Source of the DNA: a virus
Strand: one strand, 5' to 3'
IMG/VR virus record: IMGVR_UViG_3300021961_000040
Coordinates: 1 to 64,000 of that record
Length of the DNA stretch: 64,000 nt
A program made the position numbers and the translations under genes. Of this stretch, positions 10,840 to 44,937 are shown one piece after another; within the stretch, counting starts at the first letter, position 1; the number at the start of each line of letters is the position of its first letter. The notes under the pieces are model-generated. The model worked only from the letters and a program-made list of their open reading frames with translations. It searched no databases and was not told where the DNA came from.

Positions 10840-11835
10840 ATGAATGTTTTTATTACAGGCGAAAAAGGGTTTATCGGAAGAAACCTTGTCAAAAAATTAC
10901 AAGAGTTTGGATTTAATCACGTATCTTCAAATGCAGAATTTAAAACACCAAATGAAATCAATCTAATTTTTCATAAACCCGGTGAGCTTTGTGTTCACCA
11001 AAATGATATTTATACCTGGAAAGAGTTTTTTTATCGTACCAAAGTTGATGTTGTAATACACAATGCTGCTGTCGTTGGAACTGATGTGGTCGCACTTAAC
11101 GCAAGTGAAGCAACATTAACCAATGTTGCTGGTACTTACAATATTTGTCGTGCAGCTAAAGGCATGGGGATTCCTGTTTGCTATATGGGCACAACTGTCA
11201 TCTATGACGTCGCCAAGTATCAAGAAGTTGATATAACAGAGACTTCTATTACGGGCCCAACAACTCTTTACGGATGCCAAAAGTTATGTGCTGAAGATAT
11301 TGTTAAAAGCCAGTCAGGAAACCGATGGATGATTGTGCGTCCTCTCTTTGCTTACGGCGGCGATGGCGACATGAACTCTCTTATCGCAAAGACTGTGTAT
11401 GGCAGTTTAAATAACCGCAGTGATATTGACATGTTCTTAGATAAAGAAAAGATAAAAGATTACATGCATGTTGATGATTACTGCGACGCAGTCTTAACTG
11501 CTATTAAGATGAAGCTGTGGAATGATGACTGGAATGTGTCCGCTGAAACGCCTATGAATACTGGCGAAATCATGACTCTACTTTCTAACATGCTGGAGGA
11601 AGAACTAGGCGTTTCTTCAAATGTATTGACTTGGCACCCAGAAACTGATTATCTGGGTAATCACCGTTTATCTTCAAGAAAGTTCAGGGCAATCTCTGGC
11701 TGGGAACCAAAAATCTCTCTTGAAGAAGGTATTCGTAGAACAATTAGAGAAATTAGAGAAAGCGAAGGTTATGACCCACTTGTCCACCTTGATGAGGCAA
11801 AAGACAAAGGTGTGGACTTGACAGACTTTTATTAA
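10840..11835 (+). CDS. NAD-dependent epimerase/dehydratase (extended SDR)
   Basis: ITGEKGFIG, HNAA, YGCQK (YxxxK), DYMHVDD. Confidence 0.85.
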   Translation: MNVFITGEKGFIGRNLVKKLQEFGFNHVSSNAEFKTPNEINLIFHKPGELCVHQNDIYTWKEFFYRTKVDVVIHNAAVVGTDVVALNASEATLTNVAGTYNICRAAKGMGIPVCYMGTTVIYDVAKYQEVDITETSITGPTTLYGCQKLCAEDIVKSQSGNRWMIVRPLFAYGGDGDMNSLIAKTVYGSLNNRSDIDMFLDKEKIKDYMHVDDYCDAVLTAIKMKLWNDDWNVSAETPMNTGEIMTLLSNMLEEELGVSSNVLTWHPETDYLGNHRLSSRKFRAISGWEPKISLEEGIRRTIREIRESEGYDPLVHLDEAKDKGVDLTDFY

Positions 11836-11846
11836 AAATTTACAGA

Positions 11847-11875
11847 GTGTAAACTTAAGCCTCACATTTTATAAT
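11847..11875 (+). promoter_or_regulatory. Sigma70-like promoter for the dnaE locus (GTGTAA-N17-TATAAT); -10 lies in the loop of a terminator-like hairpin
   Basis: Exact motif; stem AGCCTCAC/GTGAGGTT followed by T-tract. Confidence 0.7.
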
Positions 11876-11904
11876 AAGTGTGAGGTTTTATTTTTAGGAG
11901 TATA

Positions 11905-11982
11905 ATGAGTATTTTTGACATTAAAGCGCCAACTCGCTTCGTAGGTCTTCACGGCCACACAGGTTATTTAGTATCTTCGTGA
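11905..11982 (+). pseudogene. Original, orphaned DnaE N-terminus MSIFDIKAPTRFVGLHGHTGY-LVSS*
   Basis: AGGAG RBS plus promoter; encodes the PHP HxH motif, then diverges after Tyr21 at the insertion point. Confidence 0.8.
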
Positions 11983-12013
11983 ATACCTAATATTAGTTAA
12001 GCTCGGAGAAAAT

Positions 12014-12940
12014 ATGCCAAATTATGTCAAAAACAAATGTGTAATATGTGAGTCTGAATTCGAAATACTATACAAGAAAAGATCGAAAAAAACATGTTCC
12101 AAAAAATGTAGTTACAAGCTTAGAAACAAGACTAGATACACAAAGCACGAACCACTTGAAAAAACATGCAAAACATGCAAAATTTGCAATCAAGTTTTTC
12201 AAGATACGTCTAAGAAAAAATTAGTTGATACATGCGCTGAATGTGTTCGCAAAAAAATGGTTTCAACAAGAAAAAACAAAGGTTCTTATACGAGAACTGA
12301 AGAACAAAATAAAAAATTATCTGAAACATTAAAAAAGAAGTATGAAGATGGATGGAACCCTAATACTAAAGAACATAAAGAAAAACTTTCAAAGATAATG
12401 AAAAATGCTTGGGCTTCTGGTGATTTTAAAAGAAAGTCTAAAGAAACATGTCTCCAAAAATATGGAACTGATCATTGGATGAAGACCGGTGAAGCAAAAC
12501 TAAAATTTTCTGATATTTTTACAGGTAGAAAGTTTTCTATAGAGACAAGAAAGAAAATGTCAAAATCTGCAGCCGAAAGAATTCGAACAGGAAAATGCAA
12601 ACTTAATTCAAATGGCAACGGATATTTTAGAAAAGACTTAAACTGCTATTTTAGAAGCAACTGGGAAGCAAATTTTGCTAGAATATGCAATTATGAAAAT
12701 TTAAATTGGCAATATGAACCTGATACGTTTTTTCTTAAAAGTGGAAAAACATACACGCCTGATTTTAAAATAGACAATGTGTACTACGAAATAAAAGGAA
12801 GCTGGCTCGGTGAAGCTTTTGAAAAGTTTCAAAATTTTAAATTAGAAAATAAAGAGTGCAAAATTGAGTTAGTAGATGGTAAAATATATCAGCTACTAAG
12901 AAGTAAATATAAAAACTTAATTAACTGGGAAGGTAAATAA
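12014..12940 (+). mobile_element. Free-standing homing endonuclease (Cys-rich Zn and NUMOD-like DNA-binding repeats plus PD-(D/E)xK nuclease) inserted in the dnaE 5' end
   Basis: CxxC repeats, KKLSETLK / ETRKKMS repeats, FRSNWEANFA...YEP...YTPDF...EIKG. Confidence 0.8.
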
Positions 12941-14664
12941 TGACAAAAAGGAGTTCCGAGAACCCTGTGTCTATGATTGCTCCTCCGACTCGTTTCGTTG
13001 GGCTTCATGGGCACACAGGGTTCTCCTAATAATCTGTATTCGATGGACTAGGTTACCCTAAGGATCACATTGATTTCGTGCTAGAAAATGGCATGGATGC
13101 TTGGGGTTTAACAGATCACGGAAACGGTAGCGGTTTGGCACACGCTCACAAGCATGCAACCAAGATTCAAAAGAGTGGTCGCAAGTATCGACAGATTTAC
13201 GGTTGCGAGTTTTATTTTGTTCCTTCGCTTTCGGGCTGGAAAGAAGAATACGATCAGGCAAAAATCGATCGATCACTTGAAAAGCAAAAGGCACTTAAAG
13301 AAGATGATGACGCAGGTCACGTTATTGAGAACGAAGATGAAACCAAGACTGTTGATATTACAAAAGACGAATGGAAACGACGTTATCACCTGGTGATCAC
13401 TGCACAAAACCGTGAAGGTTTAGGCAATTTGTTTACTCTGATCAAACGTGCGTACACAGAGGGATTCTATCGGTATCCCCGAATTGACTTCGATCTTCTC
13501 AAGCAACACGGCAGAGGCCTCAACGTCTCAACTGCTTGCTTAGGCGGTATCTTCTCTAATCGAATCATGCGCGGAAATGCATTAGGCAAATCGGACGCCG
13601 AAATTCAAGCTGAACTTATGCAGCTGTCTGATCGCTTTGTTGATGCTGTAGGTGAAGAAAACTTCTATCTTGAGCTGCAGTTTAATCGACTTAAGCAGCA
13701 GCATCTTGTCAATCATCATCTTCTTCGTCATGCTGATGAAACAGGAATTAATCTTATCGCAACTCCTGATTCTCACTATTATAATCCAGATAAATGGGAA
13801 GCAAGAGAGCTATATAAAAAGCTAGGCTGGATGGGGAATGATCCTTCGCCACTTCCTGAATTTGAAGACTTGAAGTGTGAACTCTATCCTAAAAATGCAC
13901 AGCAAATGTGGGATGAATTTACAAGGCATTACGATGAATATAAAGAAACGTATGAAGGATATGAGCAAGTCGTTAAAGACTCAATTGAAAGAACCCATGA
14001 CATTGCTTGGGAGAAGTGCACTGACTGTTGGATTGATACTAGTGTTAAGCTACCTGATTTTAACAAACCAGATCAGACGGCTTTTCAGCAGCTGGCGCAA
14101 AAAGTTAAGACGGCTTTGGTAAAAGAAGGTCTTCATACTAAAGAAGAATACGTTGAACGCGCCAAAATGGAGTTGGCTGATATCAAGTTTCTTGGCTTTG
14201 AAAACTACTTCTTGGTTATGAACGAAGTCTTCCACAAGGCAGCTGATCATACATTGTTCGGAAGCGCCAGAGGAAGTGGCGGAGGTTCTCTAGTCAACTA
14301 TCTTCTTGGCATTACTCAAATCGATCCACTCAAATATGACCTTCTTTGGGAACGATTTCTTGGAAGGCACAGATGTGTAGATCCGACCACATATATCATC
14401 TCTAAAAGCGGCAAGAAGATGATCAAAGACGTTGAGCTTGGAGAAAAGGTTCTTACGCATACAGGTGAATTCAAGCCAGTAGTTGACAAAGAAGAAGCTG
14501 TCCATGACATGGCTATCAAGATTAAATTCAAAGGACAAGAAATCTTGTGTTCACCTAATCATAGATGGGTCATTGACAGGGGTGGAAAACAGATCGAAGT
14601 CATGGCTTGTCATCTTCTAAAAGGTGATAAACTAATTAAGTATTCTAATGGAAAGTGTCTATGA
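12940..14664 (+). CDS. dnaE: DNA polymerase III alpha N-part (PHP domain plus start of palm) with N-intein; in-frame TAA TAA at 13027-13032 proposed to be bypassed
   Basis: ATG overlaps the HEG stop; FVGLHGHTGFS**SVFDG, TDHG, GCE, YHLV, TACL, PDSHY, RGSGGGSLV, LLWERFL. Confidence 0.85.
12958..13035 (+). promoter_or_regulatory. Candidate translational bypass signal: long hairpin ending at take-off codon TCC, gap TAA TAA, landing codon TCT
   Basis: GAGAACCCTGTGT (12958-12970) is the exact reverse complement of 13013-13025; inner stems CTATGA/TCATGG and CCGAC/GTTGG. Confidence 0.65.
14374..14661 (+). other. Split intein, N-fragment (96 aa)
   Basis: Starts CVDPTTYI (block A); GEKVLT; CSPNHRW (block B); LLKGD; then stop. 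Confidence 0.9.
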
Positions 14665-14858
14665 GTGAAAGATTTAATACATGCCCAAAATGTGGAGAAA
14701 TACAGTATGATGACAATATTGTCGAAGCTCACAATCCAGACACATGTGATGATAATATGAATGTTACACTTCGATGCAATAAATGTAATCACATCTGGGA
14801 GGGATGGGTAACTTCTCCTCACTATGAGAACATGCGATATCGAGGATGGATTCGATAA
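14661..14858 (+). CDS. Small Zn-ribbon protein
   Basis: CPKC...CNKC; ATGA overlap. Confidence 0.6.
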   Translation: MSERFNTCPKCGEIQYDDNIVEAHNPDTCDDNMNVTLRCNKCNHIWEGWVTSPHYENMRYRGWIR

Positions 14859-14960
14859 AGTTTGCTACGCCAGTCTCTTTAACAAAGAGGCACATAATAT
14901 CATGTTGAAAAAATACATTAAGTAATAATTACTCCTAATAATTTAAATTACATTTATAAA

Positions 14961-15281
14961 ATGATCGACCTAGACAAACTTCTTGCGCTTGATAAGCCAG
15001 AAACTAAACACAGAATGATTGATTATCTCTTCGCAAGAATTGACGATCAACTCTTTACAGAGAACCACGATCCTATCCACGAATTTCTAAAAGAGATAGA
15101 TCTTGATAAGATCTCGATTCAACTTGGAGTGGGGATCCTGTCAATCACAAAACCTCTCGGTAGGTGTGATAGTCGCATTATCTTCTCTTCGAGATTTAGA
15201 AAAAAGATTACAAAAACAGAACCAAGAGAACGAGTAGAAAGGCTTTTGTCTGGACTAGAAGAGAAGGAGAGCGAAGAATGA
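14961..15281 (+). CDS. Hypothetical protein
   Basis: ORF track. Confidence 0.55.
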   Translation: MIDLDKLLALDKPETKHRMIDYLFARIDDQLFTENHDPIHEFLKEIDLDKISIQLGVGILSITKPLGRCDSRIIFSSRFRKKITKTEPRERVERLLSGLEEKESEE

Positions 15282-15457
15282 TCACTATTAAAAAAGGTCA
15301 CCCACTTTATTCGTTGGTCAAAGCAATGAATGAGGATGAATATTCTGAACCCATTATTAAAGAGTCTGAAACGGGCGAAATTATAGTTTATACAGGGCTG
15401 GTTAAGAAGGGGCAAAAATATGTTCCCGGATCTTCCGGCCAATTGAAGGGAAAATGA
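15278..15457 (+). CDS. Hypothetical protein (59 aa, not in the ORF track)
   Basis: AGGAG RBS, ATGA overlap, MITIKKGHPLYSLVKAMNEDEY... Confidence 0.5.
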   Translation: MITIKKGHPLYSLVKAMNEDEYSEPIIKESETGEIIVYTGLVKKGQKYVPGSSGQLKGK

Positions 15458-15500
15458 GTGGTAAAAATTGCATAAAATAAAAACACAAAGAAAGGTAATA

Positions 15501-15698
15501 ATGAATCCTTCATTGCAGCGTCGAATTGAGAAGTTGGGGTTTGTTCCCGGATCAAGAAATGCAACAGAGTGGGCTGTGTCTCAACTTGAGTTAATTCACA
15601 GTTTACTAACGTCAGAAAAGTATGTCATTCTTAATCTTGCAGATTTAAATCATCACGTCATAGAACTAAAAGAAATCTTGAAAAGAGAGGAAAAATGA
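15501..15698 (+). CDS. Hypothetical protein
   Basis: AAGG RBS before ATG 15501. Confidence 0.5.
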   Translation: MNPSLQRRIEKLGFVPGSRNATEWAVSQLELIHSLLTSEKYVILNLADLNHHVIELKEILKREEK

Positions 15699-16055
15699 AA
15701 GCATCAAAAATTTTGGTACGTTATTTCGAAGAAAAACTTAAGCGCATTGATCCGAGTACTGTCAGTCTTAGTGAAGACGACTTCGAGGATGCACTTGATG
15801 AGTTTATGTACGAAAATCGTAAAGGTCATTTTCAAACCAATATTCGCAGTCTATTCTCGACATTATGAATCTTATAGCGTTGGCGTAAAAGTGAACATCC
15901 CGGAATACAACGGGTACATTGGTTGGACATATTGGTATGGCGGTGGGAAACATGGAAACCCAGAAGAGATTGAATGGGTAAGCGATGCATATTTTCTTAA
16001 TCTAGAAAAAGAAGAAGAAATTACGATTATTAAAAGAACTTTTTCTAAAGAGTAA
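15695..16055 (+). pseudogene. Frameshifted phage hypothetical gene
   Basis: Frame 1 MKASKIL...QTNIRS stops at 15868; frame 2 continues YSRHYES...GWTYWYGGGKHG; shift near 15851. Confidence 0.55.
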
Positions 16056-16270
16056 AGAGAGTGAAGGTAGAATTCGATGCGTGAATCTGCTTGTCCTGCT
16101 AAGATTAATCCTTCTTTAATTATTAGTAGAAGTTCTTTCTGCGTTATTCTTATTTTATTCCCCATTCTTTGCTAATAACTATTTCATTCACATTCTATTG
16201 TTTGATCTTGCGTAAGAAAGTTGATTGTATATATTGTGTGTAAAAAAATAATATGCAATTGTGAAAGTCA

Positions 16271-17845
16271 TCAAAGTATAATTTCAAAAATTGAATTTGT
16301 ACATCCATAGATCTTAGAGACGTTAGCTTTTTTAGCAACGTCTTTTTCTGTTAGACCTCTAGCTTTGTCTGCTTTAAATTTAAATCTATCAAATCTTTCA
16401 CTGAAGTTTGTCCACCAAAATCTTTTAGCAGTTTCGCCTTTAAACTTCATAAATGATTTGTAACAATACCCACCAATTCTATTGTCTGAGTATGTGAAAA
16501 GAGAATTGGCATGATTTTCTTTAGCAATTTTTTTTGCCCCAGAGATTATTTTTGATACTCCTCCGTTAACGTGTGTATTTAAAGCAAAAGACATTCTAGC
16601 GATCTCTAAGACCTTTCTTTTAGAATTCCTTTTCCATCTAAGCGTACATGCCCCTACTATTTCATCTTCGTGTATAATCTTAATTCCAAAGCTTGCCGGA
16701 ACGTAACCGTCAATATGCGTTTTATCGATAAAGTCTTTTAGTTCAATTGGCATGCAATATTCAACTTTGCATTTTCTACCGTGAATTTTTTTGATATTTT
16801 TACTAGCCAGCTTGTGTGCAATCATGGACTTAACAATATTTTGTTTAAACTCCCACTCATCTTGAAATAGAAACCAAAGTTCAATATTTTTTTGCTTTGC
16901 AAGTTGTCGCTTCAGTTCAGATTTATTAGGCTTGCACCTACCAGAAGCTTCGCTATGCCAGTACAAACCATCACACTCAATGCCAAAGTTTTTCTCTGGT
17001 ACGAGTATGTCTATTTCCTTACCACTCAGTGCTAATCTATCATCAACTAAAATGTCAAATCCAAGTGTTTTTATAAAGTCATTAATTTCAAGTTGCCACT
17101 TGCTAGCACACGCCTCCCAGGGCGGGAAACATTTATGACATTTACTACCGTACGTAATCGAATGAAGTGTCTTTTTTGTTTGATGATTACATTCTAAACA
17201 TTCAATAATAATACTGTCTTGATTGCCGCCGTACTTAGACAAAAGTCTGAAGTTATACTTTCTAAGTCTTTCTTCAACGTCTTCACTTTTTAGAATTTTT
17301 GCATTCGATAACGCGATCTTATGCTCTTTTGATAAAGTTTTTCCTTTTTGTGTCAAACTAGACTTTTTAGATCTTTTTGCTATCACTTCGCTTGTCTCAG
17401 AAGTCTTTCCAACTGACCAATGCGAATTTTCTTTATAAAATGTTTTCAATGATTGTGAGATTTTCTTGCTGTTTTCTTTTATATAATCAGTATTTTCTTT
17501 TGTCTTTCCTGACGCGTGGTGACCGCTTTCTTTGTAGAATTTTTTCATTGAGTCACTTGCTTTTTTAATACTAACTGAGTTTTCTTTTGTTTTTCCTTTA
17601 TTCCAGGGAATATGATTGTTCTCTTTGTAGGCCTTTTTTCTACTGCACTTGCCACACAAATTTTTAAAACCTTTTTTCATACTAATAAACTTAAGTGGTT
17701 CTCCGCAATTGCATAATCTTGATGCAGCCGGATTAATTAAGAGGAAGATATCAGAAGCTTCTAGATTGTGTTCTTTTTTAGTGTGTATAGAAAGACCTCT
17801 GCTTGACTTAAAACATTTACTACAAACTGGACACTGAATACTCAT
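16271..17845 (-). mobile_element. Homing endonuclease (C2H2 finger, NUMOD3-like repeats, Zn ribbon, Vsr/EDxHD-like nuclease) between the split dnaE halves
   Basis: CPVC...H...H; PWNKGKTKE repeats; EIDILVPEKNFGIECDGLYWHS. Confidence 0.8.
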
Positions 17846-17917
17846 TAAAACCTCTTGTTATGATCTTACTTTGTTTGCAATACTTATACACTGAAGTGAC
17901 TTGTTTATGAGATTTGA

Positions 17918-17946
17918 GTGTAAATATAAAAAAAAGTTAATATACT
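17918..17946 (+). promoter_or_regulatory. Sigma70-like promoter for dnaE-C (GTGTAA-N17-TATACT)
   Basis: Exact spacing; AAGGAG RBS follows. Confidence 0.7.
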
Positions 17947-17967
17947 ATTACTCTTAAAGGAGATAAA

Positions 17968-18105
17968 TTGCCTCAAGAATTAATTGAAATTGAAGAAATT
18001 GAGTTTATTCCTTACGCAAAAAGTATGATCGATATCGAGGTAGAAGATGACCATACTTTTTTTGTTGCGCAGGATGAAGAAAGCGATTTTGTATTGACAC
18101 ACAAT
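17968..18105 (+). other. Split intein, C-fragment (46 aa), +1 nucleophile Thr
   Basis: IDIEVEDDHTFF (block F), VLTHN|T (block G). Confidence 0.9.
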
Positions 18106-20217
18106 ACAAGCTGGCCAGATATTGATTCTGATGCAGGCGACCGCGATGCGCTTATCAATGCAGCCCGTGAACTTTACGGTTTTGAAAGTGTAATCCCTGT
18201 TTCGAATTTCAATACCCTGAAACTTAAGTCACTCGTTAAAGACATTGCTAAGTTCTATCAAATTGACTTTGCTGAGGTCAACAAGATGACTGGGCCGCTT
18301 CAAGACGAAGTCATGGCGCAAGCACGTGATGAAAACACTGAGAAGTCTGTGTTCGTTCTTAAACATGAAGATTGTATGCAGTACTCCAAGGGTTATCGAA
18401 CCTTTATGGAAAAATATCCAAAGGTAAAAGACCATATCGAAGAGCTATTTATGCAAAACCGCTCTATTGGTCGACATGCAGGTGGAGTTATTATCGGACC
18501 AGCAGATGCTTTGGCATCTTCGATGCCTATTATCGGTGTTCGAGGTGAATTGCAAACTCCTTGGACAGAAGGAATGAACTTTAGAAACTTGGAAGATAAC
18601 GGGTTTATTAAGTTTGACTTCTTGGGTTTGACGCTCCTTAAAGATGTAGAAAACTGTATTTCTAGAATTCTTACAAGAGAAACAGGAAAAGTTCCTTCAT
18701 TCCTTGAAATCAGAGACTGGTTTGACAAGCACTTAAACTGTCGTTTTGTTGAACAGGACGACCCAAAGGTCTGGGCACATGTTTATCATCAAAGACGAAA
18801 AGTTGGCGTTTTCCAGTTTACTGCTGAAGGCGCACGACGCTTCTGTGAGGATGCAAAGCCTACATCTATTATTGAGCTTGCTGCTTTGACAGCGATTTAT
18901 CGCCCAGGCCCTTTGAAAGCTAACGTCCATAAAAAATATGTCAATGACAAACAAAGAGCAGATCAAATTGAATATGCACATCCTATTATCAAAGAAGTTC
19001 TAGGGCCTACTTTTGGACATGTAACTTTCCAAGAGCAGTTCATGATTCTTGCACAGAAACTTGCAGGATTTTCTCCAGGAGAATCTGATAAGCTTAGAAA
19101 GACACTTGTCAAAAAATCACTTGATACAATCGGAAAGAAAGGTGATGAGCGCGAAGAGGCAAGACTCAAGTTTGTAAAAGGTTCTTGGGAAATCAATGGA
19201 GTACCCGAGTCTGTTTCCCAAGAACTTTGGGAAAGAATTGAGTTCTTCTCGGTATATGGATTTAACCTTTCCCATGCAGTTGCATATGCAATTGGTTCAT
19301 ATTATTCAGCTTGGCTTCACACATATTATGAGACTGACTGGCTTGCTACAATCCTTCAGTCTGAAAACGGCAATCCTAAAAACTTGGCAAAGGCAATTTC
19401 TGAAATCAAAGCAATGGGCTATAGTGTTAGTACTCCTGATGTTAACGAGTCAGGTCTTGAGTGGGTATGGTCTAAAAACAAGAAGTCGTTTATTCCACCT
19501 CTTACATCAATCAAGGGTTTAGGCAAGAATGCTGTTAAGGAAATTCTTCAAAATCGTCCTTATACTTCTCTTAGTCAGATGCTGTATGACGAAAACGGCA
19601 AATGGTATCACTCTAAGCTTAACAAAACAGGTTTTGCCGCACTTTGTATGACAGAGTCACTTGATGCTCTTGAGGAAATGTGGAAAGGTGAAATCCAAAA
19701 CCACCGACAGCTTCATGATATTATTATTGAAAATTATAACACTCTCAAGAAAAGCAAATTTGGTATGACACTTAAACAAGCAGAAAAGCAAGATGCTGAT
19801 CCTATCCTACCTCAGCTTATTATGCAGACGTCAGGCACAGAAGACTGGACACGCATCGAAAAACTTCAGTTGTATCAAGATATGTGTTCTGCAACTCGTG
19901 ATGACTTGGCATTTCCAGAAGAACTGATGACCAAAATTCGAAGTGCTAATGTAAAATCAGTCTTGCAAATGGATCCAGGAGAGAAAGGTATCTCTTGGTT
20001 TTGTGTTGTCGAAACAATTAAAAAGACTACAAAAAATAAAAAGGTCTTCTATCGTGTTAAGATTACAGATGAAGAAAGCAATTCTGGCTGGCTTCGTGTC
20101 TGGGGAGAAGTTCCAAGCTCTATGGAGCCTTATACAATATGGTTAGCCAATGCCTCAAATGACCCCAACTGGGGAGCTTCGACAAACTCTGCAAAAATCC
20201 GCCCACTTGTCAAGTAA
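17968..20217 (+). CDS. dnaE: DNA polymerase III alpha C-part with C-intein
   Basis: IntC then TSWPDIDSD, GRHAGG, KFDFLGL, RPGP, FQEQ, YGFNLSHA, PDVN, IKGLG, OB fold. Confidence 0.92.
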   Translation: MPQELIEIEEIEFIPYAKSMIDIEVEDDHTFFVAQDEESDFVLTHNTSWPDIDSDAGDRDALINAARELYGFESVIPVSNFNTLKLKSLVKDIAKFYQIDFAEVNKMTGPLQDEVMAQARDENTEKSVFVLKHEDCMQYSKGYRTFMEKYPKVKDHIEELFMQNRSIGRHAGGVIIGPADALASSMPIIGVRGELQTPWTEGMNFRNLEDNGFIKFDFLGLTLLKDVENCISRILTRETGKVPSFLEIRDWFDKHLNCRFVEQDDPKVWAHVYHQRRKVGVFQFTAEGARRFCEDAKPTSIIELAALTAIYRPGPLKANVHKKYVNDKQRADQIEYAHPIIKEVLGPTFGHVTFQEQFMILAQKLAGFSPGESDKLRKTLVKKSLDTIGKKGDEREEARLKFVKGSWEINGVPESVSQELWERIEFFSVYGFNLSHAVAYAIGSYYSAWLHTYYETDWLATILQSENGNPKNLAKAISEIKAMGYSVSTPDVNESGLEWVWSKNKKSFIPPLTSIKGLGKNAVKEILQNRPYTSLSQMLYDENGKWYHSKLNKTGFAALCMTESLDALEEMWKGEIQNHRQLHDIIIENYNTLKKSKFGMTLKQAEKQDADPILPQLIMQTSGTEDWTRIEKLQLYQDMCSATRDDLAFPEELMTKIRSANVKSVLQMDPGEKGISWFCVVETIKKTTKNKKVFYRVKITDEESNSGWLRVWGEVPSSMEPYTIWLANASNDPNWGASTNSAKIRPLVK

Positions 20218-44442: not shown

Positions 44443-44872
44443 GGGCCTGACACGGTTTCGACGGGGTAGAATCAAGGGAGAGTGCAAGCAGGAAAGATAC
44501 ATCCTTAAAAGTTCAAAAACAATAGTTGCAAACAACAACACACACTTCGACGCAGTCGCACTCGCGGCGTAATCGGGTGGCCGCTTAAAGCCATCTATCC
44601 AATTTAAGCAAAACAACAGATAAGTTGTAAAAATCGAAATGGTTACCCAATATTGCTGCGGTGGTTAGACAGACAGGCTTAAATCGTACAATCTGGTGGC
44701 GCTTAGAAAGAAATTGCTAAGACAGTCAGATCAATATTGGTGGAGCGCAACAGGTCGGTAAGCGCAGGGAAAACCGACTATCTTTTCTAATTTGTGATAG
44801 TAAATTAGACAAGCTTGTGAATGACTCAAACTAAGACTGCTGCGGAAGCTGGTTCGACTCCAGCCAGGTCCA
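44443..44872 (+). ncRNA. ssrA: tmRNA; tag (A)ANNNTHFDAVALAA* at 44528-44572
   Basis: GGGCCTG/CAGGTCC acceptor stem with G3-U, GGTTTCGAC D-region, GCTGG-TTCGACT-CCAGC T-arm, resume codon GCA, tag ending ALAA. Confidence 0.95.
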
Positions 44873-44937
44873 CTATTTTTAATAAATTACTTATACAGGT
44901 GCATACTTAATAGCATGAGTGAAACGAAGAGGAGTCT

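Follow-up and report, generated by a model that had tools for sequence, protein, structure and literature searches.

The window analyzed here is the whole 64,000-nucleotide (nt) stretch of marine phage DNA taken from IMG/VR virus record IMGVR_UViG_3300021961_000040 (positions 1 to 64,000), and the subject is the 5' end of its dnaE polymerase gene, where a cassette carrying a homing endonuclease gene lies in the first PHP motif and is separated from the rest of dnaE by a short gap that begins with a stop codon. Window coordinates are used throughout, and loci retrieved for comparison are designated by L and a number. An initial annotation of the window, made from the sequence alone, had described a homing endonuclease cassette at the 5' end of dnaE that left the native N-terminus truncated, and this description was borne out. 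The following features, with open reading frames (ORFs) taken from the ORF list, were distinguished at the locus:

11857–11888, plus strand: terminator-like hairpin of the upstream epimerase gene (terminator scan)
11905–11982, plus strand: copy 1, what remains of the native dnaE start, a 25-codon ORF encoding MSIFDIKAPTRFVGLHGHTGYLVSS and then a stop (ORF list)
11966–12013, plus strand: 5' leader of the cassette, with the TAGTAT motif (11969–11974) and the Shine–Dalgarno (SD) sequence of the nuclease gene (GGAG)
12014–12940, plus strand: homing endonuclease of 308 amino acids (aa) (ORF list, profile matches)
12940–13029, plus strand: cassette mini-ORF, that is, copy 2, 29 codons encoding MTKRSSENPVSMIAPPTRFVGLHGHTGFS and then TAA (ORF list)
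12958–12970, plus strand: 5' arm of the upstream hairpin (folding, covariation)
13013–13025, plus strand: 3' arm of the hairpin, ending at nt 2 of the take-off codon
13024–13026, plus strand: proposed take-off codon TCC (Ser) (comparison with cassette-free alleles)
13027–13032, plus strand: coding gap TAA TAA (alignment with L001–L003)
13033–13035, plus strand: proposed landing codon TCT (Ser), after which decoding would resume at GTA 13036
13036–14664, plus strand: N-terminal part of DnaE with the PHP domain and the start of the polymerase III alpha domain, ending in the N-terminal half of a split intein

The peptide PTRFVGLHGHTG is encoded at 11929–11964 and again at 12985–13020, on either side of the nuclease ORF. 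As the initial annotation had stated, the 12 shared codons contain seven differences and no change of residue; all seven are in the third position and all are synonymous (chance probability of about 6 × 10−5, assuming that about one-quarter of random changes are synonymous), and both copies therefore evolved as coding sequence. Copy 1 follows an SD sequence, AGGAG (11896–11900), and runs into a stop four codons past its Tyr, also as described earlier. It is identical to L001 and L002, two of the closest cassette-free relatives, at 35 of 40 positions and remains collinear with the relatives through T 11965, after which come cassette sequence and the stop, the native dnaE start being reduced to a stump of 21 codons. 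The hairpin region at 11857–11888 is nearly identical in L001 and L002, and a TATAAT box (11870–11875) lies inside its loop; together with GTGTAAAC (11846–11853), this box looks like the native dnaE promoter, judging from a recurring GTGTAAA-N16-TATAAT motif. The same motif recurs in L018, L019, and L058–L070 between the nuclease gene and the mini-ORF; it looks like a phage-specific promoter, which in cassettes of the L058 type would serve the mini-ORF and dnaE downstream of the nuclease gene. A TAGTATG-like motif similar to that at the left end of the cassette was also found in L007, L018, L019, L058–L061, and L074, and the likeness of the sequence following copy 1 to downstream dnaE was ascribed to this conserved leader motif, homology being rejected.

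The ATG of the mini-ORF overlaps the stop codon of the nuclease gene (TAATG), as had been noted, which supports the earlier proposal that the polymerase N-terminus is translationally coupled to the nuclease. The proposal that the cassette supplies its own polymerase N-terminus held only in part. A synonymously different copy, covering the first 18 codons of the polymerase gene, is indeed present, but it is not joined to the polymerase, because the initial annotation had omitted the TAA TAA (13027–13032) standing immediately before TCT 13033. With two in-frame stops between the N-terminus and the polymerase, the model proposed there therefore gives no full-length DnaE unless the gap is bypassed. 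The dnaE frame from TCT 13033 reads SVFDGLGYPKDHIDF... and has no start codon at its 5' end, the earliest in-frame ATG, GTG, or TTG past the gap in the window being GTG 13078. Pfam matches for 13033–14661 were PHP (2.1 × 10−26), DNA_pol3_alpha (6.8 × 10−25), and a weak Hint_2.

Cassette-less dnaE alleles were sought in related phages, as the initial annotation had suggested, by scanning IMG/VR with the N-terminal part of DnaE, and 55 loci were obtained, most of them encoding an uninterrupted M..PTRFVGLHGHTGFSVFDGLGYP. The closest cassette-free relatives were L001–L003, whose DnaE is 92–95% identical and reads HTGFSVFDG. Consequently, the ancestral HTGYSVFDG reconstructed earlier proved wrong: all close cassette-free relatives have Phe (TTC or TTT), and the TAT of copy 1 arose at the junction as an artefact, since the homology with relatives stops after T 11965. 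The insert itself, placed at about 11968–13032, was located nearly correctly, with the left boundary slightly off and the right side being a clean insertion instead of a simple fusion. The promoter/terminator hairpin, the SD sequence, the ATG, and copy 1 through T 11965 are collinear with L001–L003, and at the right junction the sole difference is a 9-nt insertion, TCC TAA TAA (13024–13032), by which a Ser codon is duplicated. Thus, as is typical of free-standing homing endonucleases, the nuclease ORF is present in some and absent from other otherwise collinear alleles at the same site.

The flanks of the window are nearest to L001 and L002, whereas copy 2 is identical to the cassette copy of L006 at 39 of 42 positions and to L001–L003 at only 30–34 of 42. 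In the 150 nt past the landing codon, 135 positions are identical to L002 and 122 to L006, these being small samples. By these comparisons, copy 2 is foreign, and the mosaic flanks point to horizontal movement with co-conversion. Copy 2 is nearest to L006 but the 150 nt after the gap are nearest to L002, and the cassette, with copy 2 and the gap, therefore entered, as a unit, a lineage formerly without a cassette. Copy 1 ends no more than 3 nt from the position that the gap occupies in copy 2, which agrees with cleavage at the Phe-Ser codons: the nuclease would have cut there, the broken left end would have been joined illegitimately to the cassette, and the right end would have been repaired by homology. 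At locus L060 (1574–2430), a third, partial dnaE N-terminus, ending in HAHI and a stop, lies upstream of copy 1, past two small ORFs on the minus strand; this third copy suggests repeated invasion of one site.

The nuclease comprises a Cys-rich N-terminal region with repeated basic modules resembling DNA-binding ones and a C-terminal domain of the PD-(D/E)xK type like that of T7 endonuclease I, with a PDF...EIK motif. Pfam gave only weak matches; a four-sequence profile compared with PDB matched T7 endonuclease I (1m0d, E-value = 1.1 × 10−7), and the structures 1m0d, 1fzr, and 2pfj were matched over residues 210–287 with E-values of 10−7 to 10−6. The residues P249, D250, E259, I260, and K261 are invariant, and residues 170–290 matched PHROGs families annotated as "Holliday junction resolvase" (2.6 × 10−11) and "endonuclease". 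Homologues of the nuclease adjoin the 5' end of dnaE in dozens of viral and metagenome contigs; no full-length homologue was found among GenBank phages, where the best dnaE matches were about 30% identical. In L038, L042, L071, L077, and L080, the nuclease gene directly precedes an intact dnaE whose ATG abuts the nuclease stop, and there is no N-terminal extension, hairpin, or gap. This arrangement is presumed to be a simpler state of the element in the classical free-standing form. More distant homologues with the same C-terminal domain and the ending ..NWEGK before the stop were found in many freshwater and marine viral contigs (L084–L136, e.g., L086, 2501–3400), directly upstream of a sigma-factor-like gene (MAAYKEQYY...), which is followed by an overlapping small gene; a second recoding site beside the sigma-like gene was considered and rejected, the apparent frame change being two overlapping genes.

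The arrangement of mini-ORF, stop-led gap, and resumed dnaE frame was found in viral and metagenome contigs, with 32 non-identical sequences (L006, L007, L018, L019, L050, and loci retrieved with the nuclease, L058–L076 and L137–L159) and 19 combinations of take-off codon, gap, and landing triplet; it should be noted that the junction classes are phylogenetically related and that these counts overstate independence. In all 32, a mini-ORF of about 26–40 codons closes with [F/R]-Ser-stop, always at one and the same PHP-motif residue, with a Ser codon directly before TAA, TAG, or TGA. The gap measures 2, 4, 5, 6, 7, or 8 nt, corresponding to a hop of +5 to +11 and covering all three frames, and past it the dnaE frame resumes without a start codon. 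Readthrough and a single frameshift were rejected as explanations, since the gaps fall in all three frames and several contain two stops. The landing triplet is TCN in 12 of the 19 combinations and ACG (twice), GCG, TTG (three times), or ACC in the other seven. These seven all keep the third base of the take-off codon, the six NNG triplets occurring only with TCG and ACC with TCC, and they can retain two to three base pairs with the take-off anticodon, TTG pairing with CGA by way of a G-U pair. If the landing triplet is not decoded again, the H.H..FS..DG spacing is restored in every case.

Over the 19 codons past the landing triplet, synonymous and non-synonymous differences numbered 11 and 1 between the window and L006, 14 and 0 between L006 and L007, and 9 and 0 between L018 and L058. 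Judged by these ratios, the startless codons past the gap are under strong purifying selection. In L007, L018, and L058, there is no ATG, GTG, or TTG for 20–22 codons after the gap, and such startless yet constrained codons must therefore be translated by ribosomes arriving from upstream. The gap and the hairpin are also retained by alleles that have lost the nuclease gene (L019 and L006) and by alleles lacking copy 1 (L061–L068 and L074). The decayed cassettes of L019 (3752–4000) and L006 (2400–2610) have a nuclease ORF reduced to its last codons (..WEGK), with mini-ORF, hairpin, and gap intact; in L006, copy 1 is gone too, and a minus-strand gene stands in its place.

A weak chance match in a permissive Rfam scan pointed to an inverted repeat ahead of the gap, and the 90 nt before the stop were folded. 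In every gap allele, 10–14 of the last 14 nt before the stop are paired with an upstream arm, and the stem reaches to nt 2 or 3 of the take-off codon. The folding free energy (dG) ranged from −25 to −43 kcal/mol, with z-scores of −2.1 to −5.3 in the 15 alleles tested by shuffling, whereas gapless alleles (n = 43) had no such hairpin (mean dG of −11.1, mean z of +0.4). In the window, the outer stem is a perfect 13-bp duplex (dG of −22.7 kcal/mol), and its 3' arm coincides with the approximately 13 nt that, at take-off, would occupy the path from the P site to the mRNA exit. The arms are wholly different between lineages yet complementary, e.g., GAGAACCCTGTG/CACAGGGTTCTC versus GAGAAGGTTGAA/TTCAACCTTCTC. 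In an alignment of 10 sequences, the outer 12 pairs were 100% paired and six of the 12 had changed on both sides, whereas the full 19-pair structure was 79.5% paired compared with 32–48% when the partners were slid. Compensatory evolution of this kind implies that the hairpin is functional, and the G-U pairs present in several stems favour an RNA structure over a DNA structure. The N-terminal extension encoded by the mini-ORF is always present, with a sequence set for the most part by the 5' arm of the hairpin.

Taken together, these data make it probable that a mobile nuclease cassette occupies the first PHP motif of dnaE and that a short programmed translational bypass is required for full-length DnaE. 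The cassette is made up of a leader, the nuclease gene, a re-started N-terminal mini-ORF, and the short stop-led gap. Initiation would take place at the ATG overlapping the nuclease stop, and the ribosome would read the 29-codon mini-ORF through the strong hairpin, melting its stem, until TCC (Ser) occupied the P site and TAA the A site. Instead of chain termination, the peptidyl-tRNA-Ser would unpair, the mRNA would slide by 9 nt in the window (5–11 nt across alleles), and the tRNA would re-pair at TCT. Decoding would resume at GTA and give ...HGHTGFSVFDG..., with the motif and spacing of the uninterrupted relatives, so that the junction peptide across the gap would be FVGLHGHTGFSVFDGLGYPK, with one Ser. 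Meanwhile, the outer 13-bp stem would re-zip behind the ribosome, releasing about 23 kcal/mol and probably giving a forward pull. As in bypassing of the gene 60 type, the take-off codon is followed by a stop, the landing triplet fits the take-off tRNA, and the length of the gap is free of the frame. The 9-nt gap at the junction of copy 2 and dnaE probably also breaks the recognition or cleavage site of the nuclease and would make the carrier immune. The earlier proposal that the insertion destroys the nuclease's own target is plausible, although by analogy with T4 MobA this gap would be the likelier determinant of immunity. The broader reading, held with somewhat less assurance but still favoured on balance, is that this represents a second, independent family of bypass linked to homing endonucleases: an obligatory natural stop-hop of 5–11 nt in the replicative polymerase of phages from marine and fresh waters. 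The hop would draw its power mainly from a hairpin re-forming at the mRNA exit and would serve the nuclease as a self-immunity scar; in the window, the cassette would in addition have displaced the start of the gene and supplied another N-terminus in its place.

Several observations weigh against the bypass, beside the relatedness of the junction classes already mentioned. In Escherichia coli, TAA with U as the next base is a strong context for termination, and release factor should compete with the hop. Seven of the landing triplets are only near-cognate. When 75 nt from the take-off codon were folded in 18 alleles, no conserved take-off stem-loop was found in or after the gap (z of about 0), and the mechanism would therefore differ from that of gene 60. 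Likewise, no independent nascent-peptide motif like that of gene 60 was recognised, and the chain is only 29 residues long. Finally, no cultured phage was found to carry the cassette.

The genome encodes 13 tRNAs in a cluster outside the window (G000:C1, 85233–100640), among them a tRNA-Ser(UGA) at 85408–85495, and this phage-supplied tRNA-Ser could be the hopping tRNA; examination for a special hopping tRNA revealed nothing unusual, the anticodon loop of tRNA-Ser(UGA) being a normal one of 7 nt. A phage transfer-messenger RNA (tmRNA) lies at 44443–44875 of the window (Rfam RF00023, 82.5 bits; missed by ARAGORN) and may be relevant to ribosomes that fail to bypass.

Among the other explanations considered, the one that survives best, although it is unlikely, is the production of two polypeptides: the mini-ORF peptide would end at TAA, and a truncated DnaE would arise by re-initiation after the stop or from GTG 13078 or ATG 13093, the HxH of PHP motif I being dispensable or supplied in trans. 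Stop codons do normally terminate, the landing TTG of L069, L140, and L156 could serve as a start, and the window has a GTG 15 codons downstream. However, most alleles are startless past the gap for 20–22 codons and nevertheless show 9–14 synonymous against 0–1 non-synonymous differences; neither the duplication of the Ser codon nor the co-variation of landing and take-off triplets is predicted by separate polypeptides, and the mini-ORF preserves the exact residues and spacing of the motif.

There is a still smaller chance that the inverted repeat acts as a DNA cruciform recognised by a structure-specific nuclease, in mobilisation or immunity, with the gap handled in some other way. The homology of the nuclease domain to a resolvase of four-way junctions and the perfect 13-bp repeat of the window would suit such a role, but the 5' arm is missing from the cassette-free alleles that would be targeted, and the homing target is therefore not a cruciform; moreover, the G-U pairs of several stems would be mismatches in DNA. 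In addition, the 3' arm always ends within about 1–2 nt of the take-off codon, a position relevant to translation, and the repeat is kept after loss of the nuclease gene (L006 and L019).

Removal at the RNA level, by an intron or by processing that excises 11966–13032 or the gap alone, is very improbable. Homing endonucleases are often found in group I introns, and copy 1 together with the downstream part nearly rebuilds the motif; against this, no intron family was found in Rfam either in a permissive scan (E-value up to 10), which covered 11700–13400 only, or at gathering thresholds in the whole window and in L007, L019, L058, and L061, where the only match was the tmRNA elsewhere. The view of the initial annotation that the insertion is free of splicing accords with these scans. 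In addition, only 46 + 92 nt are non-coding, the splice sites do not fit (the putative intron ends in A and not G), cassettes without copy 1 (L061–L068, L074, and L006) have no upstream exon, and the entire insert of L019 measures about 190 nt. Just as improbable is a dead gene, with dnaE inactivated by the cassette and the phage defective or using another polymerase: the double in-frame stop and the further splitting of dnaE by an intein and a second nuclease gene would agree with this, but 32 diverged sequences retain the architecture, with the codons before and after the gap under purifying selection, the remaining dnaE is intact, and the compensatory changes in the hairpin imply function.

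The second split of dnaE spans 14374–20217 of the window. The N-terminal part ends in the N-terminal intein half with a stop at 14664 and is followed by several small ORFs and by a Vsr/MTES-like homing endonuclease of 524 aa on the minus strand (16271–17845), and the C-terminal part (17968–20217) encodes the remainder of DNA_pol3_alpha together with the finger domain and HHH. With both a stop-led gap and a split intein in the gene, making the polymerase would thus need a ribosomal hop as well as protein trans-splicing.

Efficient programmed bypassing is known in bacteria and phages from essentially one well-studied natural case, T4 gene 60. Full-text literature searches brought up no account of a bypass in dnaE. 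If the proposed mechanism operates, the element of about 90 nt described here could be a much simpler experimental system for the release of mRNA, for pairing on the exit side as a source of pull, and for the codon match needed for landing; its natural variants number in the dozens, with gaps in all three frames and an upstream hairpin whose arms co-vary. Selfish nucleases would be able to settle in essential genes, even in the motifs under the strongest conservation, and would need neither intron nor intein when paired with a recoding site that disrupts the DNA sequence they target. It should also be noted that gene callers will label such polymerases as truncated or as pseudogenes.

Known systems resemble the dnaE cassette to different degrees. 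The downstream split of dnaE is like the reported fractured genes, in which a split intein is combined with a Vsr-like homing endonuclease and DnaE is among the hosts (Dassa et al. 2009, PMC2677866), and it shares with the 5' cassette the splicing-free lodging of a nuclease in an essential gene; however, fractured genes are repaired at the protein level by trans-splicing and at another site, and the 5' cassette has no intein. With the Seg and Mob nucleases of T4-like phages, the cassette shares a gene placed in or beside a conserved gene of DNA metabolism, probably spreading by cleavage of nuclease-free alleles and co-conversion of the flanks. It differs from nrdA of Aeromonas phage Aeh1, split by MobE into two reassembling proteins, in that the displaced piece is only 21 residues long and has been replaced by the cassette, with a recoding site added.

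As regards the translational step, the terminase bypass of Streptomyces phage Hau3 and the "byps" of Magnusiomyces mitochondria are also natural bypasses of short to medium length that neutralise inserted nucleotides, but they use a rare UUA codon or a mitochondrial context, no homing endonuclease is linked to them, and their sequences are unrelated. Stop-hops from one matched codon to another have been made to work in E. coli with synthetic constructs, and no natural utilised in-frame stop hop was known (2016 review, PMC5009743). In these constructs (Weiss et al. 1987, via PMC5009743), as at the dnaE junction, a stop has matched codons on either side and about 9 nt specify one residue, hops of +5 and +6 being documented; unlike them, the dnaE hop would be one that an essential enzyme cannot do without, accompanied by a dedicated hairpin, whereas the synthetic hops were engineered and inefficient. 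Pairing of the mRNA leaving the ribosome has been proposed as a driver of forward bypassing (Wills et al., 10.1101/2024.12.09.627546).

The closest parallel is the mobA/gene 60 cassette of T4. In T4, the MobA element includes the gene 60 bypass, which blocks self-cleavage and outlasts loss of the nuclease gene; MobA elements occur exclusively in Topo2L, and the T4 cassette is called unique (Manning and Atkins, 10.1101/2022.08.31.505936). In both cases, a free-standing nuclease gene sits in an essential replication gene. The part of that gene downstream of the insertion has a start of its own and gains an N-terminal extension; some dozens of codons past this start, matching take-off and landing codons enclose a non-coding gap that opens with a stop, and the bypass, in dnaE a proposed one, outlives the nuclease gene. 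The target is PHP motif I of dnaE here and Topo2L (Toprim domain) in T4, the nuclease is a T7-endonuclease-I-like PD-(D/E)xK enzyme here whereas MobA belongs to the HNH type, the gap measures 2–8 nt compared with 50 nt in gene 60, and the take-off codon encodes Ser instead of Gly (GGA). The gap contains no take-off stem-loop, and the upstream hairpin is strongly conserved, whereas the 5' stem-loop of gene 60 is poorly conserved (Manning and Atkins). Moreover, the window cassette duplicates the displaced N-terminus, whereas in T4 two functional subunits are left. There is no sequence similarity between the two, and membership by homology in the MobA/gene 60 element was rejected, as the nuclease, the host gene, and the cassette all differ. 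With its duplicated start, its T7-endonuclease-I-like nuclease, and a hairpin confined to the upstream side, the proposed dnaE element would be a counterpart to the mobA/gene 60 cassette of T4 that arose independently.

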